Shown here: positions 2,733 to 41,907 of the stretch, in pieces | Position numbering within the stretch: the first letter of the stretch is position 1 | Layout: each line of letters begins with the position of its first letter | Virus record (IMG/VR): IMGVR_UViG_3300017527_001400 | Coordinates: 1-64,000 of that record | Reading direction: 5' to 3' (one strand) | Length of the DNA stretch: 64,000 bases | Source: a virus | The notes under the pieces: generated by a model | Databases searched by the model: none | What the model was told of the DNA's origin: nothing | Seen by the model: only the letters and a program-made list of their open reading frames with translations | Program-made: the position numbers and the translations under genes

Positions 2733-3248
2733 ATGTTTAATTTTTTTGAATGGATCAAACAGAGCTCGACAATCAGAGGCATCATAGCCCTTGCTACCGT
2801 GCTTGGATATGGCGGAGCTAAGTGGGCAGATGCTACAACGCTTCAGGCGATCATATTGGCTTTGGGTCCGTTGTTCTATGCCATATATAACATGTTCCGA
2901 AAGGACAGCAATGGCACCGGCAATGGAACGGCAGCTGGTATTGCCATAGTTCTTCTCTTGTTTCCTATAGGGGTTCAAGCGGCAAGCATTAACTTAGCAC
3001 CTATGGCCGGTGTAACAGAATATACTGCAGAAGTAGACGGGAATATACAAGCCCCTCCATTCGTAACGAACGGTGATGGAAGCGCAAGTTATAATCTCGA
3101 GCCTCTAGGCCTACCTGATGGTGTCCATGTTTTCCGATTCATGGTAACCGGAACAGATAATGGTGTACCAACCTGGGGAGGTGGTTGGTCAGCCCCTTTC
3201 GAGGCCGAAAAAGTGGGGGTGCCGACGGTCACTGGACTGTCAAATTAA
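2733..3248 (+). CDS. holin-like N-terminus fused to beta-rich (Ig/FN3-like) domain
   Basis: WIKQSSTIRGIIALA holin-like start, 2-3 TM segments, then GLPDGVHVFRFMV...GWSAPF. Confidence 0.5.
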   Translation: MFNFFEWIKQSSTIRGIIALATVLGYGGAKWADATTLQAIILALGPLFYAIYNMFRKDSNGTGNGTAAGIAIVLLLFPIGVQAASINLAPMAGVTEYTAEVDGNIQAPPFVTNGDGSASYNLEPLGLPDGVHVFRFMVTGTDNGVPTWGGGWSAPFEAEKVGVPTVTGLSN

Positions 3249-6252: not shown

Positions 6253-7166
6253 AAATCCTGTGGGTATTCAAAACACGCCGGCACAACCACCTCATGAGCA
6301 GTGCAAAAAGATTACATTATGATTTCATAATGAAGCTTGAAGCATTCGCGGAAATCATAAGAATAGAACCGGAAAAAATATTAAAAAGGGTAAGAGAGCA
6401 CAACCCTGACATCATTCTTGTCTACAGCTATCATTCAATAAAGAAAAGCACAGAGCTCGAAGTCTTTAAGGATATAGATATCCCGAAGCTATGCATCGAG
6501 GTCGATTATTATTCTGTAAAAGATATGGATTGGTATAAGCGAAATGGGTTCTGCCTGGTTCATCGAGGACATATACCAAATGACCCAAACCCATGGCTTC
6601 CATTCTCATGTGATGAACAACTATTAAGATACCAAAGAAACAAGCTTTCTATTCGTGAACACAGAATAGGCTTTACCGGATCATATAAGATAGGCTCAAG
6701 GATCTTGTGGAAAACCAGAGGAAATGCAATACAACAACTTAAAAGAGCTGATCTAATACATATCAACGGAACAAATGGGAACGTTGGGCATAAGTTCTAT
6801 CCTGCCAACCTAGCATCGTCGTTCTGTGCTCTCGCCTGTTCTGGATATGTAGTTAACTCTCCATTTGGCAAGGTGTTTGAGGTAATGGGTTCAGGCACAT
6901 TGCTGATGACGACACCATTAAACGCTTCTAATATTTTATTTGGATGTGATAATTTTTTTTATACATACAAAAAGGATTGCAGCGACGTCGTTGCGGTAGC
7001 CAGAAAAATACTGTCGGACCCAATAAAAAGACAACAGGAGATGGTCGATGAAGCTGCAAACATTATAGGCCAGGCTCACACGGACAGCCACAGGATCGCC
7101 GAACTGCTTGAAATAATATATGCTGTCATGGATAATAGGGAGGTCCCAAGGAGATGGATACCATAG
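6249..7166 (+). CDS. glycosyltransferase GT-B (CgeB-like)
   Basis: IGFTGS, KVFEVMGSGTLLMT, HTDSHRIAEL motifs. Confidence 0.7.
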   Translation: MKILWVFKTRRHNHLMSSAKRLHYDFIMKLEAFAEIIRIEPEKILKRVREHNPDIILVYSYHSIKKSTELEVFKDIDIPKLCIEVDYYSVKDMDWYKRNGFCLVHRGHIPNDPNPWLPFSCDEQLLRYQRNKLSIREHRIGFTGSYKIGSRILWKTRGNAIQQLKRADLIHINGTNGNVGHKFYPANLASSFCALACSGYVVNSPFGKVFEVMGSGTLLMTTPLNASNILFGCDNFFYTYKKDCSDVVAVARKILSDPIKRQQEMVDEAANIIGQAHTDSHRIAELLEIIYAVMDNREVPRRWIP

Positions 7167-7837
7167 ACAAGGTCATAGAAAAAACAACACATAAAGACAG
7201 AAAACAGAGAAACTGGGACTTTTATCGTAATGCATATCTTCGCGGAGACATGACCTTCATGGAGATAAAACGCATAAATGACATATGGTATCCATTATTT
7301 CAGAATCAAGAATTCCATACCACCGAGCAGATCGTAAAAGGTTTTAACATGGTTGGTCCCGCACATCGTCATACTGTTCTCGAGCTTGGATGCTACAGAG
7401 GGGCTCTCGCTGAAAGTATTCTTCAGCAAGTCCCGGACATCGATGCTTGGTTTGGTTATGATATTTGTGATGCAGCACTGGACGAATGCCTTTCTCATCC
7501 AAAATTTGGACCCATCAGGATGGATGATTGGTTTCACAAGCTGGACAATATACCCTCTCATGATATTTTTGTGTCTACACATACTCTAGAACACATGTCA
7601 AACGACGAAGCCATTGCATCATTGGAAAAGGCTATAGAATCTCCACGCTGTAGATACGTAATGCTCGAAATGCCTATCCCAGAAGCAGGTAAGATATGGC
7701 GAGGAGGTGGATCATCGCACGTATTGTCTTTGGGTCGTAAACATTTCAGAAAATTCTTTGACCAGCGGGGCTGGACAAATATGCATGAATATACAAGACA
7801 TATTAATTGGGGGGTAATGTATGGACGTTCATTATAA
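7154..7837 (+). CDS. class I SAM-dependent methyltransferase
   Basis: VLELGCYRGALA, GYDI, HTLEHM. Confidence 0.8.
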   Translation: MDTIDKVIEKTTHKDRKQRNWDFYRNAYLRGDMTFMEIKRINDIWYPLFQNQEFHTTEQIVKGFNMVGPAHRHTVLELGCYRGALAESILQQVPDIDAWFGYDICDAALDECLSHPKFGPIRMDDWFHKLDNIPSHDIFVSTHTLEHMSNDEAIASLEKAIESPRCRYVMLEMPIPEAGKIWRGGGSSHVLSLGRKHFRKFFDQRGWTNMHEYTRHINWGVMYGRSL

Positions 7838-8270
7838 AATCGGATCTTACACTGCGTTAGGAGAAAAATTAATCATTGAAAACAATGTAAAGATAGGAAA
7901 CCACTGTGAGGTAGGCGATGAATCAACAATTAGAGAAGGTGCTTTACTGCAAGGACGCGTTCGTCTTGGACCTTTATGCTATATCGGTCATGATGTTATC
8001 ATCAAGATTGGAGCGATTCTGGCAGATAGAACGCATCTCGAAGAAAACGTATTTATTGGGCCCAATGTTATTACACTTGGAGGTGGGCCCGATCGAACAC
8101 GAGTGAAAGGCGCATACATAGAACGTAATTGTTATATTGGCGCCGGCTCAAAGATTGCTGCTGGGATCAGAATTGTACACGATACAATTATCGGTGCAAA
8201 TTCATTTGTTAACAAGGACATAACCGAACCTGGGACATACGCCGGGACACCTGTAAGGAGACTTAAATGA
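7821..8270 (+). CDS. hexapeptide acyltransferase
   Basis: FIGPNV, IIGANSFVNKDI...YAGTP. Confidence 0.85.
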   Translation: MDVHYKIGSYTALGEKLIIENNVKIGNHCEVGDESTIREGALLQGRVRLGPLCYIGHDVIIKIGAILADRTHLEENVFIGPNVITLGGGPDRTRVKGAYIERNCYIGAGSKIAAGIRIVHDTIIGANSFVNKDITEPGTYAGTPVRRLK

Positions 8271-8938
8271 TCTTTATCACCGGATGTGCACGATCTGGAA
8301 CGAGCATGGTTGCTGGAATTATTGCTAGAAGTGGGGCTTGGGGTGGTAACGTCTGCGATGCTACACGATTCAATCCCAAGGGACAATATGAAAACACCAA
8401 AATCAGGAATACGGTCATTAAGCCCATGTTGAAACTTATGAAATGTGATCCAATGGGCCAAGATCCTCTGCCAACAATGGAACAGTTACTGAAAATGGTT
8501 AATGGTTTCCCGGCAGAGATCCGTGACCATGTTCGCAAGATAATGCGAAATCAAGGTCTTCGTGATGATGGTGAATGGTATTTCAAGGGTGCAAAGGTTT
8601 GTCTTATCTGGCCTATCTGGATGAAAGCTTTCCCAGAAGCACAATACATTATAGTTGAACGTCCAGATGACCTGATCATACAATCCTGCATGCACACATC
8701 ATTCATGAGGAAACGCCAAACGCCTGACGAGTGGCAAAAATGGATCAATATTCATAAAGAACGTTTCGATGAAATGGAAAAACATCTTCCAGAAAATGTA
8801 CATCGTATTGATTCTCTTGAAATCGTAAAGGGAAATTTTGATAACATGAAAAAGCTCGTAGAAAAGATAGGACTTCATTGGGATCAAGCAGCTGTAGAAG
8901 AATTTGTCGACATTGATATATGGAACACTGTAAAATAA
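8267..8938 (+). CDS. sulfotransferase family protein
   Basis: IFITGCARSGTS PAPS-binding loop; FPEAQYIIVER. Confidence 0.8.
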   Translation: MIFITGCARSGTSMVAGIIARSGAWGGNVCDATRFNPKGQYENTKIRNTVIKPMLKLMKCDPMGQDPLPTMEQLLKMVNGFPAEIRDHVRKIMRNQGLRDDGEWYFKGAKVCLIWPIWMKAFPEAQYIIVERPDDLIIQSCMHTSFMRKRQTPDEWQKWINIHKERFDEMEKHLPENVHRIDSLEIVKGNFDNMKKLVEKIGLHWDQAAVEEFVDIDIWNTVK

Positions 8939-9055
8939 ACCAGTATGGGATATGTGGGGCTGAAGGATAATTAACTACTGAAAAATGTAGAGCCTGAGCT
9001 ATTTATCGAAGTAAGCATAATTGATCGGGGCGGGGATCAATAAAACGGAGGCAAT

Positions 9056-9262
9056 ATGTCAGGATTAGAAATGAAGTATTTTGTTTTAAAACCAAAAGGC
9101 AAGGATCGCTATGCCGAAGCATCCAGAAAAGCACTAAGGGCATATGCCCATCATATCGCTATTGAAAATGAAGATTTAGCGAAAGACTTACTAAATTGGG
9201 CAGATAAAGAAACAGATACTATGTCAAAGGTATATGCTGTCAAAAACATAATGAAAGATTAA
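9056..9262 (+). CDS. hypothetical phage protein
   Basis: GGAGG RBS; KYFVLKP...ASRKALRAYA. Confidence 0.6.
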   Translation: MSGLEMKYFVLKPKGKDRYAEASRKALRAYAHHIAIENEDLAKDLLNWADKETDTMSKVYAVKNIMKD

Positions 9263-10029
9263 AAGGTAGGGAATAAGCTGTTTGATTGCGCTAACATAGC
9301 ATCCATTTCTTCATCCATCGGTTTAACATTCATAGGAAAAAATCCATCAGGAGTTAGATGCATCAGCATCATGCGGAAATTCTCTGGTTGAATACCGGGG
9401 AAATAATTCTCCTCTATCATAATTCTTCGGTAGGAATTTAACTGCAATGAGTATTTATTAAAGTCGTGGTCTTGCAAATGAGAAATTGGGCCAAGTCCAT
9501 TCTGGTATGGATTAAAACTTTTAATTTCTTTGTTCTGTTTCCAATCAATGATACAAACGTTTTCATCGTTTTCAGCCAGACAGTCTATAATCCCAGCGAT
9601 ACCAAGCTTCTTAGAGAAGACAATTTTCTCAACCTCTGTCGGAGTATACGTCTCAGCTAACCATTCGATAGCATCTCTTGTACATTCAAATAATAACGAG
9701 CATCTTTTAGATAAAGGCTTTGGTTCTTCGGTCTTGACTCCAAGATACTGAGCCATTATAATATATTCAGCATATGAATGAACGTTATGTCCTTCGTCTC
9801 TACCCTTTTTTGCTTTGGCTGCCCACTCAGCAAGTATCTCTTCGGCAGTGATTTTACGTTCATTCGCTTTTCTCTCAGACCAATACTTAGAATCAAACTT
9901 GCCAAAGAAAGAACTAAGAAATGAGGTAACGCCCTTGAGCTTTAGTCCCGAGTCCTGTAAGGTGAAAGTATGCACATCTTCATCAAACACAACTGTCTGG
10001 CCACTTGGATTGGTCGCTTCTATAGACAT
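9259..10029 (-). CDS. PD-(D/E)XK (Cas4-like) exonuclease
   Basis: GVTSFL, GHNVH, IAGIID, IIDWK, YSLQLNSY; AGGAG RBS before ATG at 10029. Confidence 0.8.
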   Translation of the reverse strand: MSIEATNPSGQTVVFDEDVHTFTLQDSGLKLKGVTSFLSSFFGKFDSKYWSERKANERKITAEEILAEWAAKAKKGRDEGHNVHSYAEYIIMAQYLGVKTEEPKPLSKRCSLLFECTRDAIEWLAETYTPTEVEKIVFSKKLGIAGIIDCLAENDENVCIIDWKQNKEIKSFNPYQNGLGPISHLQDHDFNKYSLQLNSYRRIMIEENYFPGIQPENFRMMLMHLTPDGFFPMNVKPMDEEMDAMLAQSNSLFPTF

Positions 10030-13474: not shown

Positions 13475-14845
13475 ATGAAATTGAATACCGCAACAAAACA
13501 TCGTATCCACACCCACGAAGGCGCTCCTGCCAAAGCAATCAACGCTGAGTTACAACTCGAAAGGTCTATCATGGCTAATATGCTGTGGGAAAACCAGTTC
13601 TATGAGTCCGGTCAGGCAATTGCCGACAGGATCAGCGACCTTTGCAAGCAGGTCTCTCCCGAATTCATCTCTTCCATGGCAGTAAAAGCCCGGCATAAAA
13701 TGTACCTCCGGCATGTTCCTTTGCTGTTGGTTAAAGAGCTTGCAAATCTTTGCAATGCCAACACCGGTAGCGTATGGAGGATGAAGGCTCAGCTCATTCG
13801 CAGAACCCTTGCTTCTGTTATCAATCGCCCCGATGAACTGTCGGAATTTCTGGCTATCTATTGGAAAGACGGCAAGGTACCTCTGTCCAATCAGATCAAA
13901 CGTGGTCTGTCTGATGCCTTCAACAAATTTGATGAATACCAAATTGCGAAATACAATCGCAAAAGCGACATCACGTTGAAGGACGTACTGACGCTATGCC
14001 ATGCGAAGCCTAAAGATCTTGCACAGTCAGGAATCTTTGAACGGCTTTTGAATGACAATCTGGCAACACCCAAGACCTGGGAAGTTGGTCTCTCCGGTGC
14101 AAAGGCTCATGGCGTATCCAAGAAGGATGTCTGGGAAGACCTGCTTCGTGAAAATAAAATGGGTGGCATGGCAGTGCTTCGAAACCTGCGGAACTTTGAC
14201 CGTGATGGTGTCGATCGAAATCTGGTTCGTGAAGCCATAGTGAAAATGAAACCCTATCGCATTTTGCCTTTCAGATTCATTGCAGCTGAAAAGTATGGGC
14301 CCAATTATTCTGATGTCATCGAAGCCAAGATGCTCGAATGTACCGAAAATATGACCAAGCTCACTGGTAGGACCATCTTGCTGGTTGATGTCTCTGGGTC
14401 TATGTTTTCACCTATATCCCAGCGATCTGATATTAATCGGATGAAAGCTGCTGAAGGCCTGGCTATCTTACTTCGGGAAATTTGCACAGAGATCCAGATT
14501 ATATCTTTCTCTTATCATCCTGTGAATGTTCCTAACAGGAGAGGTTTTGCCCTCGGAGAAGCGATCACGAGGTCTCAGGACAACGGTGGAACCAACTTTG
14601 GTGAAGCTGTTTCTCAGGCATATAATATCCCTCATGATCGGTTAATTGCCATCACAGACGAACAATCTCATGATCGTGTGCCTGATCCTAAACATGGCAT
14701 TCCTTCTTATGTGATTAACGTTGCTTCATATCAAAATGGCGTTGGTTACGGGCCTTGGACACATATCGATGGTTGGTCTGAAAATGTTGTTCGATATATC
14801 CAGTCGCTGGAGGGACTCGATGCACATAGTAAAAATGACATGTAG
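13475..14845 (+). CDS. rsr: Ro60/Rsr TROVE-domain RNA-binding protein
   Basis: THEGAPA start, LWENQFYESG, FDEYQIAKY, TWE, AVLRNLRN, LPFRF, VWA VDVSGSM, ITDEQ, IDGWSE. Confidence 0.92.
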   Translation: MKLNTATKHRIHTHEGAPAKAINAELQLERSIMANMLWENQFYESGQAIADRISDLCKQVSPEFISSMAVKARHKMYLRHVPLLLVKELANLCNANTGSVWRMKAQLIRRTLASVINRPDELSEFLAIYWKDGKVPLSNQIKRGLSDAFNKFDEYQIAKYNRKSDITLKDVLTLCHAKPKDLAQSGIFERLLNDNLATPKTWEVGLSGAKAHGVSKKDVWEDLLRENKMGGMAVLRNLRNFDRDGVDRNLVREAIVKMKPYRILPFRFIAAEKYGPNYSDVIEAKMLECTENMTKLTGRTILLVDVSGSMFSPISQRSDINRMKAAEGLAILLREICTEIQIISFSYHPVNVPNRRGFALGEAITRSQDNGGTNFGEAVSQAYNIPHDRLIAITDEQSHDRVPDPKHGIPSYVINVASYQNGVGYGPWTHIDGWSENVVRYIQSLEGLDAHSKNDM

Positions 14846-15577: not shown

Positions 15578-15853
15578 ATGACATCAAAACAAGTTGATAG
15601 ATTAATTGAAGAAATCGGCAATGTTGCATATAACTTAAAATATTTAGGAAATGGAAATGCTTCAACTCAATTTGGAGCAATTGAAGGCCATTCAATGCAA
15701 GTAAAGGAAGGGCTTGAAACCTTAGCCTCTGCAGTTTCAAGTGCTGGAGGAGAAATAAACATAAGTGATTTACCAACTGCAATCGAGGGTGCTGGTAGAG
15801 ATATTAAAGATGGGCTGCTATCCATAGCGGCTGCGATAAATGATGCGGGGTAA
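15578..15853 (+). CDS. hypothetical protein
   Basis: ORF with LKYLGNGNASTQFGAIE. Confidence 0.55.
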   Translation: MTSKQVDRLIEEIGNVAYNLKYLGNGNASTQFGAIEGHSMQVKEGLETLASAVSSAGGEINISDLPTAIEGAGRDIKDGLLSIAAAINDAG

Positions 15854-15922
15854 GGTAGTCTGGTCTAACCTAGGTGTCTCATAAGCACCTCTTCGCGGGT
15901 TCAAATCCCGCCCCCGCTTCCA
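15844..15922 (+). tRNA. tRNA with CAT anticodon (Met or Ile2)
   Basis: GGTGT-CTCATAA-GCACC anticodon arm, GGTTCAAATCC T-arm, CCA end. Confidence 0.85.
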
Positions 15923-15954
15923 AAATATTAAAAGGAGGCTATATGATGATTCTT

Positions 15955-16230
15955 GTATTCGAATAGTATTCCATATCATGCCTTCAGAAGCGATCAGATC
16001 CGATTTCATTAATAATAGCATGGGATAGCATGCCTTGCCGCATTATCCAGTTTGCTTCGACCCTATCTTATATAATTCAAATTCTATTTGGATTCGGTTC
16101 GATAAAACTCTACGCAATGCACTATCATCAAATGCAAAATCTCATAGGATCCAATAAAATCCTACGTTTATTATTTCAATACTGTACAAACAAGGATTGG
16201 CCTTAACAGTACAATAGTATTGAATGCTTA
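15955..16230 (+). repeat. NNN-AT pentamer array 1 (putative guide RNAs)
   Basis: cgaAT agtAT tccAT atcAT gccTT cagAA gcgAT cagAT ccgAT ttcAT...; continues up to the RBS of the RAMP gene. Confidence 0.8.
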
Positions 16231-16244
16231 TAAGGAGAGAGAAA

Positions 16245-16997
16245 ATGAAAAAGAAAGCACCAGGACCGTACACATTCAGAATTGTTGGACAGGCAGATTC
16301 CGCGTGGCGCGGGGCAGTACCGGACGATTGTGCAGATCTCAAAGTTGCACCCGAGAAAAATGTAAAGGAGCTCCTTTACATGATCGTCAAGGCAGAAGTT
16401 GAAAGACTCACACAAAAGGGTGATACAAAGGGGGCAGCTGAGGCTGTCAAAAAGTATCAAGATCATTCAAAACATCAATATGCGAATCCATTGAATGTTT
16501 TCAAAAAAGACAAGCAAAACGGTGATATCCCATGTATCGGTGCTCATTGTCTTTATGGTGGGTTTCGTGATGCTGCCGTTGAGCTTTTCCCGCAGTATTT
16601 CTATAAAACTGCTGCAGACCGTGGCAAAAAGCCATCGAACAAGCATCTTAGAAAATATGTTCATGTCCGTCCTTATCATGTTTTCTTGCATCGGCCTTCA
16701 ATGAATGGTAATGGTAAGATTATAAAAGAAGTGGATGGTGTTCATGATCAACATCCTACGCCAAAAGTCGGGGCCTTTTGTCGTTATGAATTTATTGATT
16801 CTCCATTTCAATTTGAATATCTTCTAAATGTTTCCATCGAAGGCCCCTTCAAAAAGTTCCTGGAAAATCAACACGAAGTTAAAATGGCAATCGTTCAATC
16901 AGCAAATGCCGGTCAAGGCGGCGGAAGGGCAGCAGGTTATGGAATGTGGAGGATACTCAAGTGCAAGGTTGAAGATGGCCTGTCGTATACGCCGTAA
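16245..16997 (+). CDS. stand-alone Cas7/RAMP-superfamily protein
   Basis: GDIPCIGAHCLYGGFRDAA resembles the RAMP P-x-I-x(4)-L-x-G-x-x-R helix; C-terminal Gly loop GQGGGRAAGYG; no other cas genes in window. Confidence 0.75.
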   Translation: MKKKAPGPYTFRIVGQADSAWRGAVPDDCADLKVAPEKNVKELLYMIVKAEVERLTQKGDTKGAAEAVKKYQDHSKHQYANPLNVFKKDKQNGDIPCIGAHCLYGGFRDAAVELFPQYFYKTAADRGKKPSNKHLRKYVHVRPYHVFLHRPSMNGNGKIIKEVDGVHDQHPTPKVGAFCRYEFIDSPFQFEYLLNVSIEGPFKKFLENQHEVKMAIVQSANAGQGGGRAAGYGMWRILKCKVEDGLSYTP

Positions 16998-17034: not shown

Positions 17035-17229
17035 ATGTCAAAGATCACTGACACGCTAACAGATGCTGCAGATAAGGTTCTCAATGGTGAAATTCCATTG
17101 AAAACCGGTGAAGTCGTTCATAAACTGGGCAATTCGCTTGGAGTCGCAAAAAACTCCGAGTGTCGTGCACAGGAAATTGGACTGGAAGACGACACAAAAG
17201 CCGCACTGGATGCCATCAAAACAGAGTAA
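17035..17229 (+). CDS. small protein downstream of the RAMP gene
   Basis: AAGGAG RBS, 64 aa, followed by hairpin GGGTAAGCGGCAATTGCCGTTTACCC. Confidence 0.6.
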   Translation: MSKITDTLTDAADKVLNGEIPLKTGEVVHKLGNSLGVAKNSECRAQEIGLEDDTKAALDAIKTE

Positions 17230-17271
17230 ACGGAAACCTTGGGTAAGCGGCAATTGCCGTTTACCCATGTC

Positions 17272-18550
17272 TTCCTATCCTGTGTTGTTCGATAGTATGC
17301 ATTTAGATACCATAGACTCGTATTTTATTCATAAGAAATGTCATACGGTTCCGTTCGATCCCTTATCTCAGGATCCGATAATATGCTATGCATTATAGAA
17401 TTTGCCTTGCTTAGGTAGCATATGTTTCTATTTGATCAATGATTGATTCAATACCATCGAATTGAGTCCTCTGTGATACAATGTAATAGAATAAATGTAT
17501 TTAATATCATTGCATGGAGTTCGATAAGCTTCCATCAAATCATATGCATTATTTTATTAACTGGAATTGAAAAAGATCCCTTCGCATGGAATGTATAGTC
17601 CGCTATAGTACCGTTCCATAATACACGATGCTATGCTTTTGAATAAATAATTTGATCTAGTAATATTTGATTCCGTGAGATGCTATCTTATATTATGAAT
17701 TAATCTCATCTCATCAGATATTATGCGTTTCGATTCGATTTGATCCGATCTATAATCTCATGCCATATTATATTAATCGATAACTCAAGGTCCGATCCCA
17801 TTCGATTCGATGAAATAAAATATTATGCAAAATTAAAATACAATAATTTAGAGTGGGACCGTATTTGAACCTATTCTATTTTATATTATCGCTTTAATAC
17901 TCAATACCATCAGACCGTATTATATGCCTTCGCATCTGATCGTATGACATAATCAATTGCATCGCATGCGATCGCGCATAATTGAACCAAATATTATGGA
18001 ATCAATAATTCAATAACATATCATCAGGCTATATGCCATTGAATATGTTCCGATTTTATCCACCAATAGTATGCCATCGGATAGATTGTTTTGTAATGTC
18101 ATAATCTGCCATTCGCAATGTCTTATTTTACAATCGAACATTATGGCTTGGCTTAGTCTTCCATAAAATATATTATTTAATTGGAATTTGATTTTATGCC
18201 TTCAAGAAGTATCCGATCCAATTCATAATTGCATCAGATTTTATACAAATAAATATTGTCTCGTTTAATTCATAAATGTCATCCGTTAATATGGCTTGGA
18301 ATTTGTTGCTATAGCTACTTTACGATTCGATAAACAATTCCATATCATCCAAATACATTGAATTATATGCAATTAATAATCAATTAAAATTGTTCCCAGT
18401 ATTGTTCAATTGGATGCGATCAGTTGAAATAAATCATTCCATTTTATATGACTCATTGATATCGCTTTCTATGACATGGAATATTTCTCTTCATAAAATA
18501 AAATTAATTGGCACATCACGCTTTCTTATGGGATATAATGTTTTACATTA
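17272..18550 (+). repeat. NNN-AT pentamer array 2 (about 20-25 blocks of ~9-11 pentamers)
   Basis: No credible ORF over 1.28 kb; e.g. 17705 ctcAT ctcAT cagAT attAT gcgTT tcgAT tcgAT ttgAT ccgAT; blocks separated by AAT-type phase shifts. Confidence 0.85.
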
Positions 18551-18589
18551 AACTTTACACACACAATAAAATAAAGGAGGAACAAACTC

Positions 18590-18934
18590 GTGGAACTCAT
18601 TAGATTTCACAACGCAATAATCGGCAATAGAAAAAACAACCCAGTTATCACCGAATGTATCATCAAGGACGGCAACAAAATTGCTTCCGGAATTGCTCTC
18701 TGCAGCAAAATGGATAAGTTCAACGAAGTCACCGGTATCAATTTGGCCAGGCGCAGAGCTCTTCGGAAAATCAAAGGTCGCAAGGTCCGTCCAATGGCAA
18801 GACATAAGGCCATCTCTATTTTCATGGAAACCGGATATCCCATACCTGCTGATGGAGCGAAGGCCCTGAACCTGAACCGACAGTGCCTCAGCAAAGTATG
18901 TAAGATCGAAAAAGAAGCTCTCTTTAAGGTCTAA
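18590..18934 (+). CDS. hypothetical phage protein
   Basis: AAGGAGG RBS; GIALCSKMDKFNEVTGINLARRRA. Confidence 0.65.
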   Translation: MELIRFHNAIIGNRKNNPVITECIIKDGNKIASGIALCSKMDKFNEVTGINLARRRALRKIKGRKVRPMARHKAISIFMETGYPIPADGAKALNLNRQCLSKVCKIEKEALFKV

Positions 18935-27758: not shown

Positions 27759-29423
27759 ATGACAACATTTCTTCAGGATCTATACAAAGGTAAACCAAAC
27801 GATCATCACATCTTAATATGGACTCTGAAAGGAAAACGCTCCAAATGGTTTAAGACGGTAAAGGAAGCGGAGGACTTCATAAGTGCCAACCCTGATGATA
27901 CATACTTCGGGGTTGGCACAAGTATTAAGGACTTCGGACCTTCGAAACGATGCACAAAAAGTAAAATTTCAGGAATTCCCGGGCTATATGTTGACATCGA
28001 TATAAAGCCCGATGGCGAAGACAGCAAAGCCCACAAGGGTAAGAAGTATCCCAAAAGTATGAAGGAAGCTCTGTCACTGGTCGAAGGACAGGGCATGGAT
28101 CCAAGCATTATCATAAATAGCGGTTATGGATTACACTGCTATTGGCTATTCGATGATTTCTGGTCATTTGATAATAACGCTGAACGCCAACAAGCTGCAG
28201 AGCTCGAACAACGTATGAACGCCACGATCTTGAACCGTGCGAAACGCAACGGCATGGCGATAGACAGCGTGTTCGACTTGTCTCGGGTTTTGCGGCCTGC
28301 GGGAAGCAATAATTGCAAACGCAAAAAGCCTGCTGCAGTGACTGTACAATCAGACAGTGGTAAAAGATATGATCCTCTTGACCTCGAACGTGACCTCGAC
28401 AAACTCCCTGACAAAAAAATAAAAGATACACATAGAACTTTCTCAGACATAAAGATAGATCCGGGATTAAAGGTCAATCCAAAGGTAGAGATCAAGGCGG
28501 ACGATTTATTCGAGCTATCAGCACAGCAAGATCAATTCAATGCTACATGGGCAGGTAAACGAGGCTTCAAAAGCCCATCAGAATACGATTTAAGTCTGGC
28601 GAATATGGCTGTAGAAGCCGGATGGAGTGATCAAAAGGTCGTCAACCTGATTATCCATCATCGACGCAAAACCGGAGAGCTTGATCCGGTCAAAATGACT
28701 AGAAAAGATTATTTTGATCGAACAATAAGACTTGCAAAAGAAGCTGCTAAAAAAAACGAGTTTGAACGGCTTACAGACAAAATCGTGGCAAGCGGGACGA
28801 TTTTTGATCAAAAAACTATTCAAGATGTTACAAATCACATAAATAAGCTGCTAAAACCTCTCAAGTTTGTAGAAATCAGAAAGCATATCAACGAACCAAA
28901 AGTAGATTATTTTATAGACGTCATTGCACCTGATGGAACGGCTTGGGAGATAAAACTTGAAGGTAGCTTACAAACTAGACTGCTGTTTATAAAAAACCTT
29001 CAAGACAGAACAAATGTACGCCCCAGAATCGGCGTCAAGCAATGGGATGCCTTGTCTCAGGCATTCAGCATCGTTGTTGTAGAGGTTGAGCGATCTCTCC
29101 GGATGGAGCAGATACAAGATGCAACAGTTATCTATGTTGAAAAGTTCATTGCAAATAAAAACGTCAAGCTTAAAGAAGTCTGGTCTTCGGGTCAGCCATT
29201 CAAGCATAAAGGTGAATGGGTCTTAAATGTCAAAAAGTTCCACACATGGTTCACCCTTGCAAACAATGAAGGCGATTACGATCAGAAAAGCCTCAGAGCC
29301 GATCTCAAGGAGGCCGGCTTCAAAGGCATTAACATCTGGCTGGTAGAACATCAAGCAGATGGAAGCTATCTTCGAAAGAAGAAGGCTTATATGAAGATCC
29401 CCAAAAGCTGGCCACTGCCTTAA
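27759..29423 (+). CDS. RepB-type (AEP) DNA primase
   Basis: YVDID, INSGYGLHCYWLF, DLSRVLRPAGSNNCK, SPSEYDLSLA. Confidence 0.85.
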   Translation: MTTFLQDLYKGKPNDHHILIWTLKGKRSKWFKTVKEAEDFISANPDDTYFGVGTSIKDFGPSKRCTKSKISGIPGLYVDIDIKPDGEDSKAHKGKKYPKSMKEALSLVEGQGMDPSIIINSGYGLHCYWLFDDFWSFDNNAERQQAAELEQRMNATILNRAKRNGMAIDSVFDLSRVLRPAGSNNCKRKKPAAVTVQSDSGKRYDPLDLERDLDKLPDKKIKDTHRTFSDIKIDPGLKVNPKVEIKADDLFELSAQQDQFNATWAGKRGFKSPSEYDLSLANMAVEAGWSDQKVVNLIIHHRRKTGELDPVKMTRKDYFDRTIRLAKEAAKKNEFERLTDKIVASGTIFDQKTIQDVTNHINKLLKPLKFVEIRKHINEPKVDYFIDVIAPDGTAWEIKLEGSLQTRLLFIKNLQDRTNVRPRIGVKQWDALSQAFSIVVVEVERSLRMEQIQDATVIYVEKFIANKNVKLKEVWSSGQPFKHKGEWVLNVKKFHTWFTLANNEGDYDQKSLRADLKEAGFKGINIWLVEHQADGSYLRKKKAYMKIPKSWPLP

Positions 29424-40863: not shown

Positions 40864-41250
40864 GTGGATTGGGCGGGAGAGCATAACTGGAAATCCGGCA
40901 AAGGCTGGCACTACAGAGTGAAGCTTGTGTCGAAGCGTGTCGATCAGGTGATCCAAATAGACTGCTACAAAATGGCTCGACAGTCTGCAGCTGGCATGGT
41001 GCGTTCTAAGGCTGGATGGGATCACCGTCCGGAGTTGGCGATTCAGCAGGGCGATCGGGTGAGAGTACGAACGCCTCATTACAAAAGGGAGATGGACACC
41101 AACAAGAACAGCCAGAAATATACTCGCCACATCTACTCGGTCAACTATACCCGAGAAATTGAGGTGTTGGAGAGGTTGGAAGCCTGCTTACCTCCATCCG
41201 CCTACGCAAACCCCAGTAATCAATCGGGTTCAGCACCGAAGCCTGCCTAA
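40825..41250 (+). CDS. possible OB-fold protein embedded in palindromes
   Basis: AAGGAG RBS; beta-rich; IQQGDRVRV motif. Confidence 0.5.
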   Translation: MQKKSKIETVEGIVDWAGEHNWKSGKGWHYRVKLVSKRVDQVIQIDCYKMARQSAAGMVRSKAGWDHRPELAIQQGDRVRVRTPHYKREMDTNKNSQKYTRHIYSVNYTREIEVLERLEACLPPSAYANPSNQSGSAPKPA

Positions 41251-41907
41251 GTCCAATGGATGGTTGGGGTGCGAGCCTCAACCATCCAATCCTCCTAAGC
41301 CAAGCGATTCTCTGACCCAGAAAGAAATCTCAGCGATTCACTACATTTCGACAAGACTCAGCGATGCAATGAATTTGGTGGAAAAGCACCACCAAATCCG
41401 TTGCCCTGCTAAGTCTTGACGAAAAGCAGCTCTCTGCTGTGATTTCTTTCTGGATCAGTTCTCTGCTTGGCTTAGGAGGATTGGATGGTTGAGGCTCGCA
41501 CCCCAGCCATCCATGGGGACTTAGGCAGGCTTCGGTGCTGAACCCGTTGATTACTGGGGTTTGCGTAGGCGGATGGAGGTAAGCAGGCTTCCAACCTCTC
41601 CAACACCTCACTTTCGCGGGTATAGTTGACCGAGTAGATGTGACTCGGTATTTCTGGGCTGTTCTTGTTGGTGTCCATCTCCCTTTTGTAATGATGCGTT
41701 CGTACTCTCACCCGATAGCCATGCTGAAGTCGCCAACTCCGGACGGTGATCCCATCCAGCCTAAGAATGCACTATGCCATCTGCAGACTGTCGAGCCATT
41801 TTATAGCAAAGATGTCTATTTGGATCACCTGATCGACTCGACACAAGCTACACTCTGTAGTGCCAGCCTTTGCCGGATTTCCAGTTATGCTCTCCCGCCC
41901 AATCCAC
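40864..41907. repeat. ~1.04-kb imperfect palindrome centred at 41385
   Basis: GTGGATTGGGCGGGAGAGC.../...GCTCTCCCGCCCAATCCAC; apex ATTTGGTGG-aaaagca-CCACCAAAT; right arm is a frameshifted antisense copy of the ORF. Confidence 0.9.

Follow-up and report, generated by a model that had tools for sequence, protein, structure and literature searches.

A candidate VIPR-type guide aimed at the integrase catalytic-tyrosine box within a pentamer array of an uncultured phage

The window considered here is a stretch of 64,000 nucleotides, positions 1 to 64,000 of the IMG/VR record IMGVR_UViG_3300017527_001400, which represents an uncultured phage. The whole record measures 78,408 bp and is 86% complete as judged by CheckV. 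The features of interest all lie on the plus strand. They begin with a gene for tRNA-Met (CAT) at 15844–15922, found by ARAGORN and by the Rfam tRNA model with 49.5 bits. Just downstream is a first tract of pentameric units, array 1 (15930–16235), which ends at the ribosome-binding site of a gene for a 250-residue protein (16245–16997). This gene is followed by an open reading frame of 64 codons (17035–17229) and then by a second and longer tract, array 2 (17264–18560). A near-perfect palindrome of about 26 nucleotides around CAATTG occupies 17241–17266, between the small open reading frame and array 2; it has no T-run and was not called as a terminator. Right after array 2 is an open reading frame for 114 residues (18590–18934), whose sole match is a marginal one to the PADLOC HerA model (E 0.0024), and some 1 kb upstream of the locus 13475–14845 encodes a Ro60/TROVE protein with a vWA domain (Pfam TROVE 4e-19; PHROG 850, RNA-binding protein).

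The arrays are recognised by their periodicity. Between 17240 and 18560, bases five positions apart are identical with a frequency of 0.406 and bases ten positions apart with 0.359, against about 0.25–0.28 at other lags, an excess that places the five-nucleotide periodicity beyond chance. When the 64-kb window was scanned, the lag-5 signal was prominent in two non-coding tracts, at about 15850–16250 and 17200–18550, and no such periodicity was found in the rest of the 78-kb record bar a weak signal near 41250. The latter (about 41250–41500, excess 0.08) is G+C-rich and is probably coding. Tandem Repeats Finder reported no repeat in the array, because three of the five bases in every unit are variable. 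A cyclic hidden Markov model (HMM) describes the unit as N-N-N-[A 0.70, T 0.16, G 0.09]-[T 0.89], the frequency of T at the fifth position ranging from 0.82 to 0.89 across tracts. The same model divides the tracts into blocks of 7–16 in-phase pentamers, mostly 8–13, that are joined through phase shifts of 1–3 nucleotides. On the basis of lag-5 periodicity and this segmentation, array 1 consists of around four blocks of N-N-N-R-T pentamers, and array 2, a 1.3-kb non-coding and A+T-rich tract, of around 23 abutting blocks of 7–16 pentamers that lack long invariant tails. The junctions are loose, no conserved 5' handle or 3' tail of the blocks could be defined, and promoter and terminator scans at the locus returned signals at chance level.

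The 250-residue protein has no match in Pfam, PHROG or PADLOC, and a search of the 'phages' collection, both with 8 kb of DNA and with the protein, also found no match. Its predicted structure is that of a Cas7-like RAMP protein. The AlphaFold (AF2) model, made from an alignment of 40 sequences, has a pLDDT of 91.7; a version made from three sequences reached only 56. Foldseek pairs the model with Csm3 at E 5e-7, and in VIA-align the best match is likewise Csm3 (6ae2_B; Z 12.6, rmsd 3.8, 163 residues aligned), followed by Cmr4, the Cas7 domains of gRAMP/Cas7-11, type IV Csf2 and type VII Cas7. Matches to the Cas7 backbones of Class 1 systems have Z scores of 10–12.6. The weak sequence matches to solved structures are nearly all to RAMPs, and the C-terminal G-loop, GQGGGRAAGYG, fits the pattern GxGxxxxxGxG. 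The family comprises 48 representatives after clustering at 50%, and the ten members that were checked all come from metagenome sources only.

The pairing of this gene with a pentamer array is conserved. All five viral contigs that carry a homologue with 39–49% identity also carry a five-nucleotide periodic array adjoining the gene. In one of these (L005, a viral contig of 31% G+C) the array extends over approximately 2.4 kb, from 7040 to 9639, contains about 42 blocks and runs to the end of the contig. In two others about 0.3 of the units (maximum 0.33) have G as their fixed purine, such that N-G-T units occur beside N-A-T units (L001, 2589–3150; L004, 6700–7450). The 64-residue product has no family in Pfam, PHROG or PADLOC, and L005 encodes a homologue of it at the equivalent place (tblastn, 1.6e-10). 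Similar small open reading frames come after the arrays in L004 and L001, the sizes ranging from 64 to 75 residues.

Arrays of this kind have a precedent in the VIPR systems, CRISPR-like RNA-guided DNA silencers that were first described in 2026 (bioRxiv 10.64898/2026.04.26.720920, PMC13142463; structures in 10.64898/2026.04.26.720927). VIPR is made up of a phage-borne ancestral RAMP protein, Vipr, an accessory gene, vap, and vrRNAs of 9–16 tandem five-nucleotide units; in every unit the protein binds a GGY trinucleotide and leaves two bases to pair with DNA, and the pairing passes over one base of the target (10.64898/2026.04.26.720920). The skipped base usually corresponds to the wobble position of a codon, and the effect is transcriptional silencing of rival mobile elements (10.64898/2026.04.26.720920). 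In the structures, the skipped slot holds a flipped-out base, and the target base opposite goes unread (10.64898/2026.04.26.720927). By its layout of array, gene, small open reading frame and array, together with a lone Cas7-like RAMP, the present locus fits a VIPR system, in which the 64-residue product would be a candidate for the vap-like accessory protein. Two other ideas about the arrays, a TRAP-like ring protein wrapped by blocks of about 52 nucleotides and an element that bends DNA by having AT once per half turn of the helix, were dropped in view of the Cas7 fold and the VIPR papers.

The likeness is closest in outline to the type II system of the Escherichia phage SUSP1. The SUSP1 locus was located and its GGYNN tracts were confirmed; one vrRNA is found upstream of vipr, giving the same order of array, gene, small open reading frame and array. 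Common to both are a lone RAMP, carried by a phage, that has a G-loop, a thumb and a helical insert, a small gene close by, and five-nucleotide arrays on both sides of the gene in runs of about 9–16 units. Both also appear to read two bases and skip one, on either target strand, with the skip aligned to the wobble position, without self-targeting and with targets in rival elements. They differ in the scaffold, which is N-R-U (mostly A-U) with only two fixed positions here as opposed to G-G-Y in SUSP1, and in the protein, which has 250 rather than 195 residues and no significant sequence similarity. Comparison of single sequences with published Vipr gave nothing, and hhalign of the family against the SUSP1 / X1U2U4 Vipr profile gave a probability of 4% (E 0.0098), which is not significant, for a colinear alignment of 122 columns that includes the G-loop. 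The arrays differ as well, since about 27 blocks abut one another here, whereas SUSP1 has about four vrRNAs, each with an invariant pseudoknot tail of around 40 nucleotides. In type II VIPR every repeat tract is followed by a structured 3' tail of constant sequence; this is absent here, and in this respect the tail-less abutting blocks are nearer to the 'staggered arrays' that have been reported for other VIPR types (10.64898/2026.04.26.720920).

The unit itself is none of the published motifs, which include GGY/NN, NNNGG, YNNNG, NNNNG and the GAC, CAC, WGT and TGH cores. Written in the published register as n3-R-U/n1-n2, it has a purine at G2, a pyrimidine at Y3 and a free base at G1, and this register fits transcription on the plus strand, the strand of the RAMP gene. 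Family-wide, the unit in that register is N-[A 0.5–0.7, G 0.09–0.33]-[T 0.82–0.89]-N-N. Non-canonical VIPR arrays of the types GAC/NN, CAC/NN, WGT/NN and TGH/NN have been found through entropy periodicity (bioRxiv 10.64898/2026.10.21.760802). Like the present arrays, these have a fixed trinucleotide other than GGY and an adjoining Vipr-like fold, and WGT/NN resembles N-[A/G]-T; the N-G-T units of L001 and L004 form a bridge to the WGT/NN motif of that language-model preprint. Nevertheless, its text names no example with an A-T core, and its arrays have about ten repeats in comparison with tracts of 1.3–2.4 kb in the present family.

With the Cas7 backbones of Class 1 CRISPR systems (Csm3, Cmr4, Csf2 and type VII Cas7) the protein shares an RRM core, a G-rich loop, a thumb and, presumably, periodic base flipping. 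In contrast to those systems, the locus has no CRISPR repeats or spacers and no further cas genes, and the period is five nucleotides rather than six, with an asymmetric code. Class 1 CRISPR-Cas was rejected as an identity for the locus, in which there are no tandem or long direct repeats and no protein matches a cas model.

The reading code was explored with patterns in which bases 1 and 2 of each unit were specified and base 3 was left free. An informative guide is a block of ten units on the plus strand of array 2, at 18010–18059; its counterpart, on the opposite strand, is the AEP primase motif (V)DSGNGIHAYWM[LF]D. The first-pass annotation of this DNA had already called the block primase-like, and this was borne out. 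Units 2–10 returned 14 viral matches, 11 of which fall in the AEP primase motif with the skipped base on the wobble position. Eight viral contigs, against an expectation of about 0.1–2, match at 20 of 20 read bases, with unit 1 included even though it was absent from the pattern, and the third bases, those of the skipped slot, agree with the targets at merely 3–6 of 10 positions. Perfect agreement at the read bases alongside such poor agreement at the third validates, in silico, a two-read/one-skip code for this A-U clade and makes contiguous reading unnecessary.

The genes matched by the primase guide are prim-pol/DUF927 primase-helicases, which lie in phage replication modules like that of the present phage and on contigs of similar G+C. 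The phage's own primase (27759–29423, motif SGYGLHCYWLF) agrees with the guide at 15 of 20 read bases, so that 18010–18059 gives the impression of a guide directed at related phages that spares its bearer. Searches of all the guides against the phage's own genome gave no matches above shuffled controls. Other skip rules (xNN, NxN, NNN, NN, NNxx, NNxxx and NNNxx) gave no signal in the phage's own genome and the homologous loci, a low-power set. Exact viral scans with three further guides, as patterns of equal information, yielded zero, one and zero matches without clustering, and most targets are evidently unsampled. The guides from the arrays of L001, L003, L004 and L005 include none that matches an integrase or a primase motif.

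The block that drew attention to the locus is found within array 2 at 17895–17952, as delimited by the HMM. It overlaps no open reading frame of 50 or more codons, and the first three bases of its 11 units are aat tca acc cag cgt tat gcc cgc ctg cgt gac. The first-pass annotation had taken it as nine units; these 45 bases stand at 17906–17950, and their decoding by the first three bases of each unit, as ACC CAG CGT TAT GCC CGC CTG CGT GAC or TQRYARLRD, is correct. The nine are the units (3–11) that match integrases, but the block has 11, among them an extra unit, tcaAT, at 17901–17905, and units 1 and 2 mismatch. Within the nine, position 4 is A in eight units and position 5 is T in eight. Bases 1 and 2 of these units equal codon positions 1 and 2 of T-Q-R-Y-A-H-L-R-D in the sense of the coding strand, with the skip on the wobble base. 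As the third slot is skipped, the guide specifies T-[H/Q]-R-[Y/stop]-A-R-L-R-[D/E] rather than TQRYARLRD. The block is very probably a VIPR-type guide.

TQRYAHLRD is, as had been proposed, a real motif that recurs in PF00589 integrases, and its tyrosine is one that we take, from what is established for that family, to be the catalytic nucleophile. A pattern of units 3–11, with A or G allowed at base 2 of codon 6, gave six matches in viral contigs, five of them within LLTHKSPxMTQRYAHLRD at the C-terminal end of an integrase. For one of these contigs (L010), the open reading frame at 3182–4351 matches PF00589 with E 6.8e-29, and the site covers residues 349–357 at the end of the domain match. 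Among bacterial genomes, taken as one per prokaryotic species, at least 87 TQRYAHLRD integrases from many phyla are present in the 127 matches listed. Integrase matches are always in the wobble-aligned frame, and, among the matches listed, they all carry CA at the histidine codon where the guide has CG. The guide consequently agrees at 17 of 18 read bases and would place a G opposite a template-strand T at the eighteenth, the single difference, CGC for CAC or CAT, that the first-pass annotation had pointed out. Its proposal of a guide against an integrase is upheld as regards a guide-type element, of the VIPR kind, and a 17/18 integrase match; no particular prophage, satellite or ICE is singled out. 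Nor did the match offer the hoped-for route to the host, because a motif common to integrases of so many phyla names neither an element nor a host. The phage's own record, at its 86% completeness, contains no PF00589 gene.

A close parallel is found in SUSP1, where vrRNA4 targets the excision recombinase of the F5 satellite through a wobble-aligned match to active-site codons (bioRxiv 10.64898/2026.10.15.759431). Both would be phage guides with wobble-aligned skips on the catalytic region of a recombinase, such that escape requires damage to the enzyme, and in both the footprint is partial, covering six units in vrRNA4 and 9 of 11 in the present block. The two differ in that vrRNA4 is directed at a serine recombinase from one defined satellite family and its effect has been shown in infection experiments, whereas the present block matches the catalytic-tyrosine box of tyrosine recombinases, involves one G.T position and is known from sequence alone.

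We consider it likely that a tyrosine-integrase gene is the natural target of the block. Against this stands the view that the guide is genuine but that its resemblance to integrases is a coincidence, the true target residing in a competitor that has yet to be sampled. Units 1 and 2 (AAx TCx) agree with integrases at only 0–2 of 4 read bases, bringing the whole block to 17–20 of 22, and exact targets of 10 or 11 units have no match in the metagenome collection. One mismatch has to be allowed. Exact 18/18 matches with CG number 21 among the bacterial matches listed, all outside integrases and at about the chance number; seven of these represent one conserved dinB-type polymerase gene of Duganella, which was rejected as a target since exact matches occur at around the expected number. 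Three other guides are likewise without a target. Moreover, no other guide of the array matches the three complete integrase contigs, hence there is no convergence on one element, and none was found on the primase contigs either. Some 27 guides, two strands and a motif-seeking reader also inflate the chance of a single 17/18 coincidence. On the other side, one homologous site accounts for five viral matches, which are diverged, and for at least 87 bacterial ones, a unit-permuted control of equal information produced just two scattered matches, and the neighbouring primase guide shows the array aiming at catalytic motifs. One would hardly expect a chance resemblance to fall in the wobble-aligned frame and in a class of genes that is already a proven VIPR target. 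We therefore regard coincidence as unlikely, though as an alternative to be taken seriously.

Two further views concern the code and the nature of the arrays. If all three variable bases were read, as the first-pass annotation had supposed in decoding a contiguous 27-mer, then targets would be contiguous stretches of 27–33 nucleotides. That annotation had looked for an integrase of about 24/27 identity, and three integrases, the best found, have exactly this over contiguous bases. At two-fold degenerate codons the unread third base mostly gives the motif's residue, in 3 of 3 cases for the integrase (p about 0.11) and 6 of 7 for the primase (p about 0.04), a weak hint that target triplets may be the source of the guides, or else that base 3 may be read to a slight extent. 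Literal reading is nonetheless very improbable in the light of the primase guide, perfect at bases 1 and 2 alongside poor agreement at base 3, of third bases that agree at a mean of 3.8 of 9 in the 87 integrase matches listed, and of the published structures with their flipped-out slot base (10.64898/2026.04.26.720927). More improbable still is that the pentamer tracts have no guide function and instead form a protein-binding scaffold, a decoy RNA or a structural element in DNA, the decoded motifs being artefacts. The chance-level promoter and terminator scans, the loose block limits and the lack of a conserved handle or tail would agree with such a role. It would leave unexplained how an entire ten-unit block attains 20/20 to a primase motif in eight independent viral contigs, with the phage's own primase spared, and it is opposed by the conserved pairing with a Cas7-like protein and by the experimentally established VIPR precedent (10.64898/2026.04.26.720920).

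Our preferred reading, to which we give a probability of roughly two in three, is that the block is the gene for one vrRNA-type guide, belongs to a VIPR-like system carried by an uncultured phage and is aimed at the integrase catalytic-tyrosine box. By analogy with VIPR, the arrays would be transcribed and processed, and the Cas7-like protomers encoded at 16245–16997 would polymerise on the transcript into a filament, one per five-nucleotide unit. Each protomer would sequester the scaffold trinucleotide n3-R-U, the counterpart of G-G-Y, and present the next two bases to double-stranded DNA, with one target base skipped per unit. In this manner, units 3–11 would give the first two bases of every codon in the catalytic-tyrosine box, passing over the wobble bases and tolerating one guide-G/target-T pair at the histidine codon. 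The most likely function would be to bind and transcriptionally silence the integrase of a competing temperate phage, a satellite or another integrative element in the same host. Mutational escape would be costly, because the guide reads only those positions of the catalytic motif that determine the amino acids. As for expression, it can be conjectured that processing of the tRNA-Met frees the first guide of array 1, and the RAMP protein might regulate its own leader, since array 1 reaches its ribosome-binding site.

The 2026 preprints already describe systems of this kind and their code, report units that depart from the canonical one, and place a guide on the active site of a recombinase. 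What is new is the N-R-U/NN unit, whose code could be validated in silico, the great length and lack of tails of the arrays in this clade of proteins, and the likely tyrosine-integrase target. A clade so far encountered in metagenomic phages alone uses an A-U scaffold in place of G-G-Y and appears to have retained the two-read/one-skip code. With arrays so long and devoid of tails, one may ask how individual guides are released. More speculatively, and in our view improbably, the long arrays, with about 27 guides here and about 42 in L005, could act as a panel against the catalytic motifs of whole gene families, such as the integrase tyrosine box and AEP primase motif II, so that a single guide would be able to silence many rivals unrelated to one another. 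In the same vein, the unread third base may still reflect the codon in the target, which would hint that guides are copied triplet by triplet from their targets with the scaffold inserted. The integrase guide would be for tyrosine recombinases what the published guide is for the active site of a serine recombinase (10.64898/2026.10.15.759431). If the preferred reading is true, wobble-skipping guides would be selected for catalytic motifs that are unable to mutate away, and the A-U clade would supply a second scaffold for programmable DNA binding.
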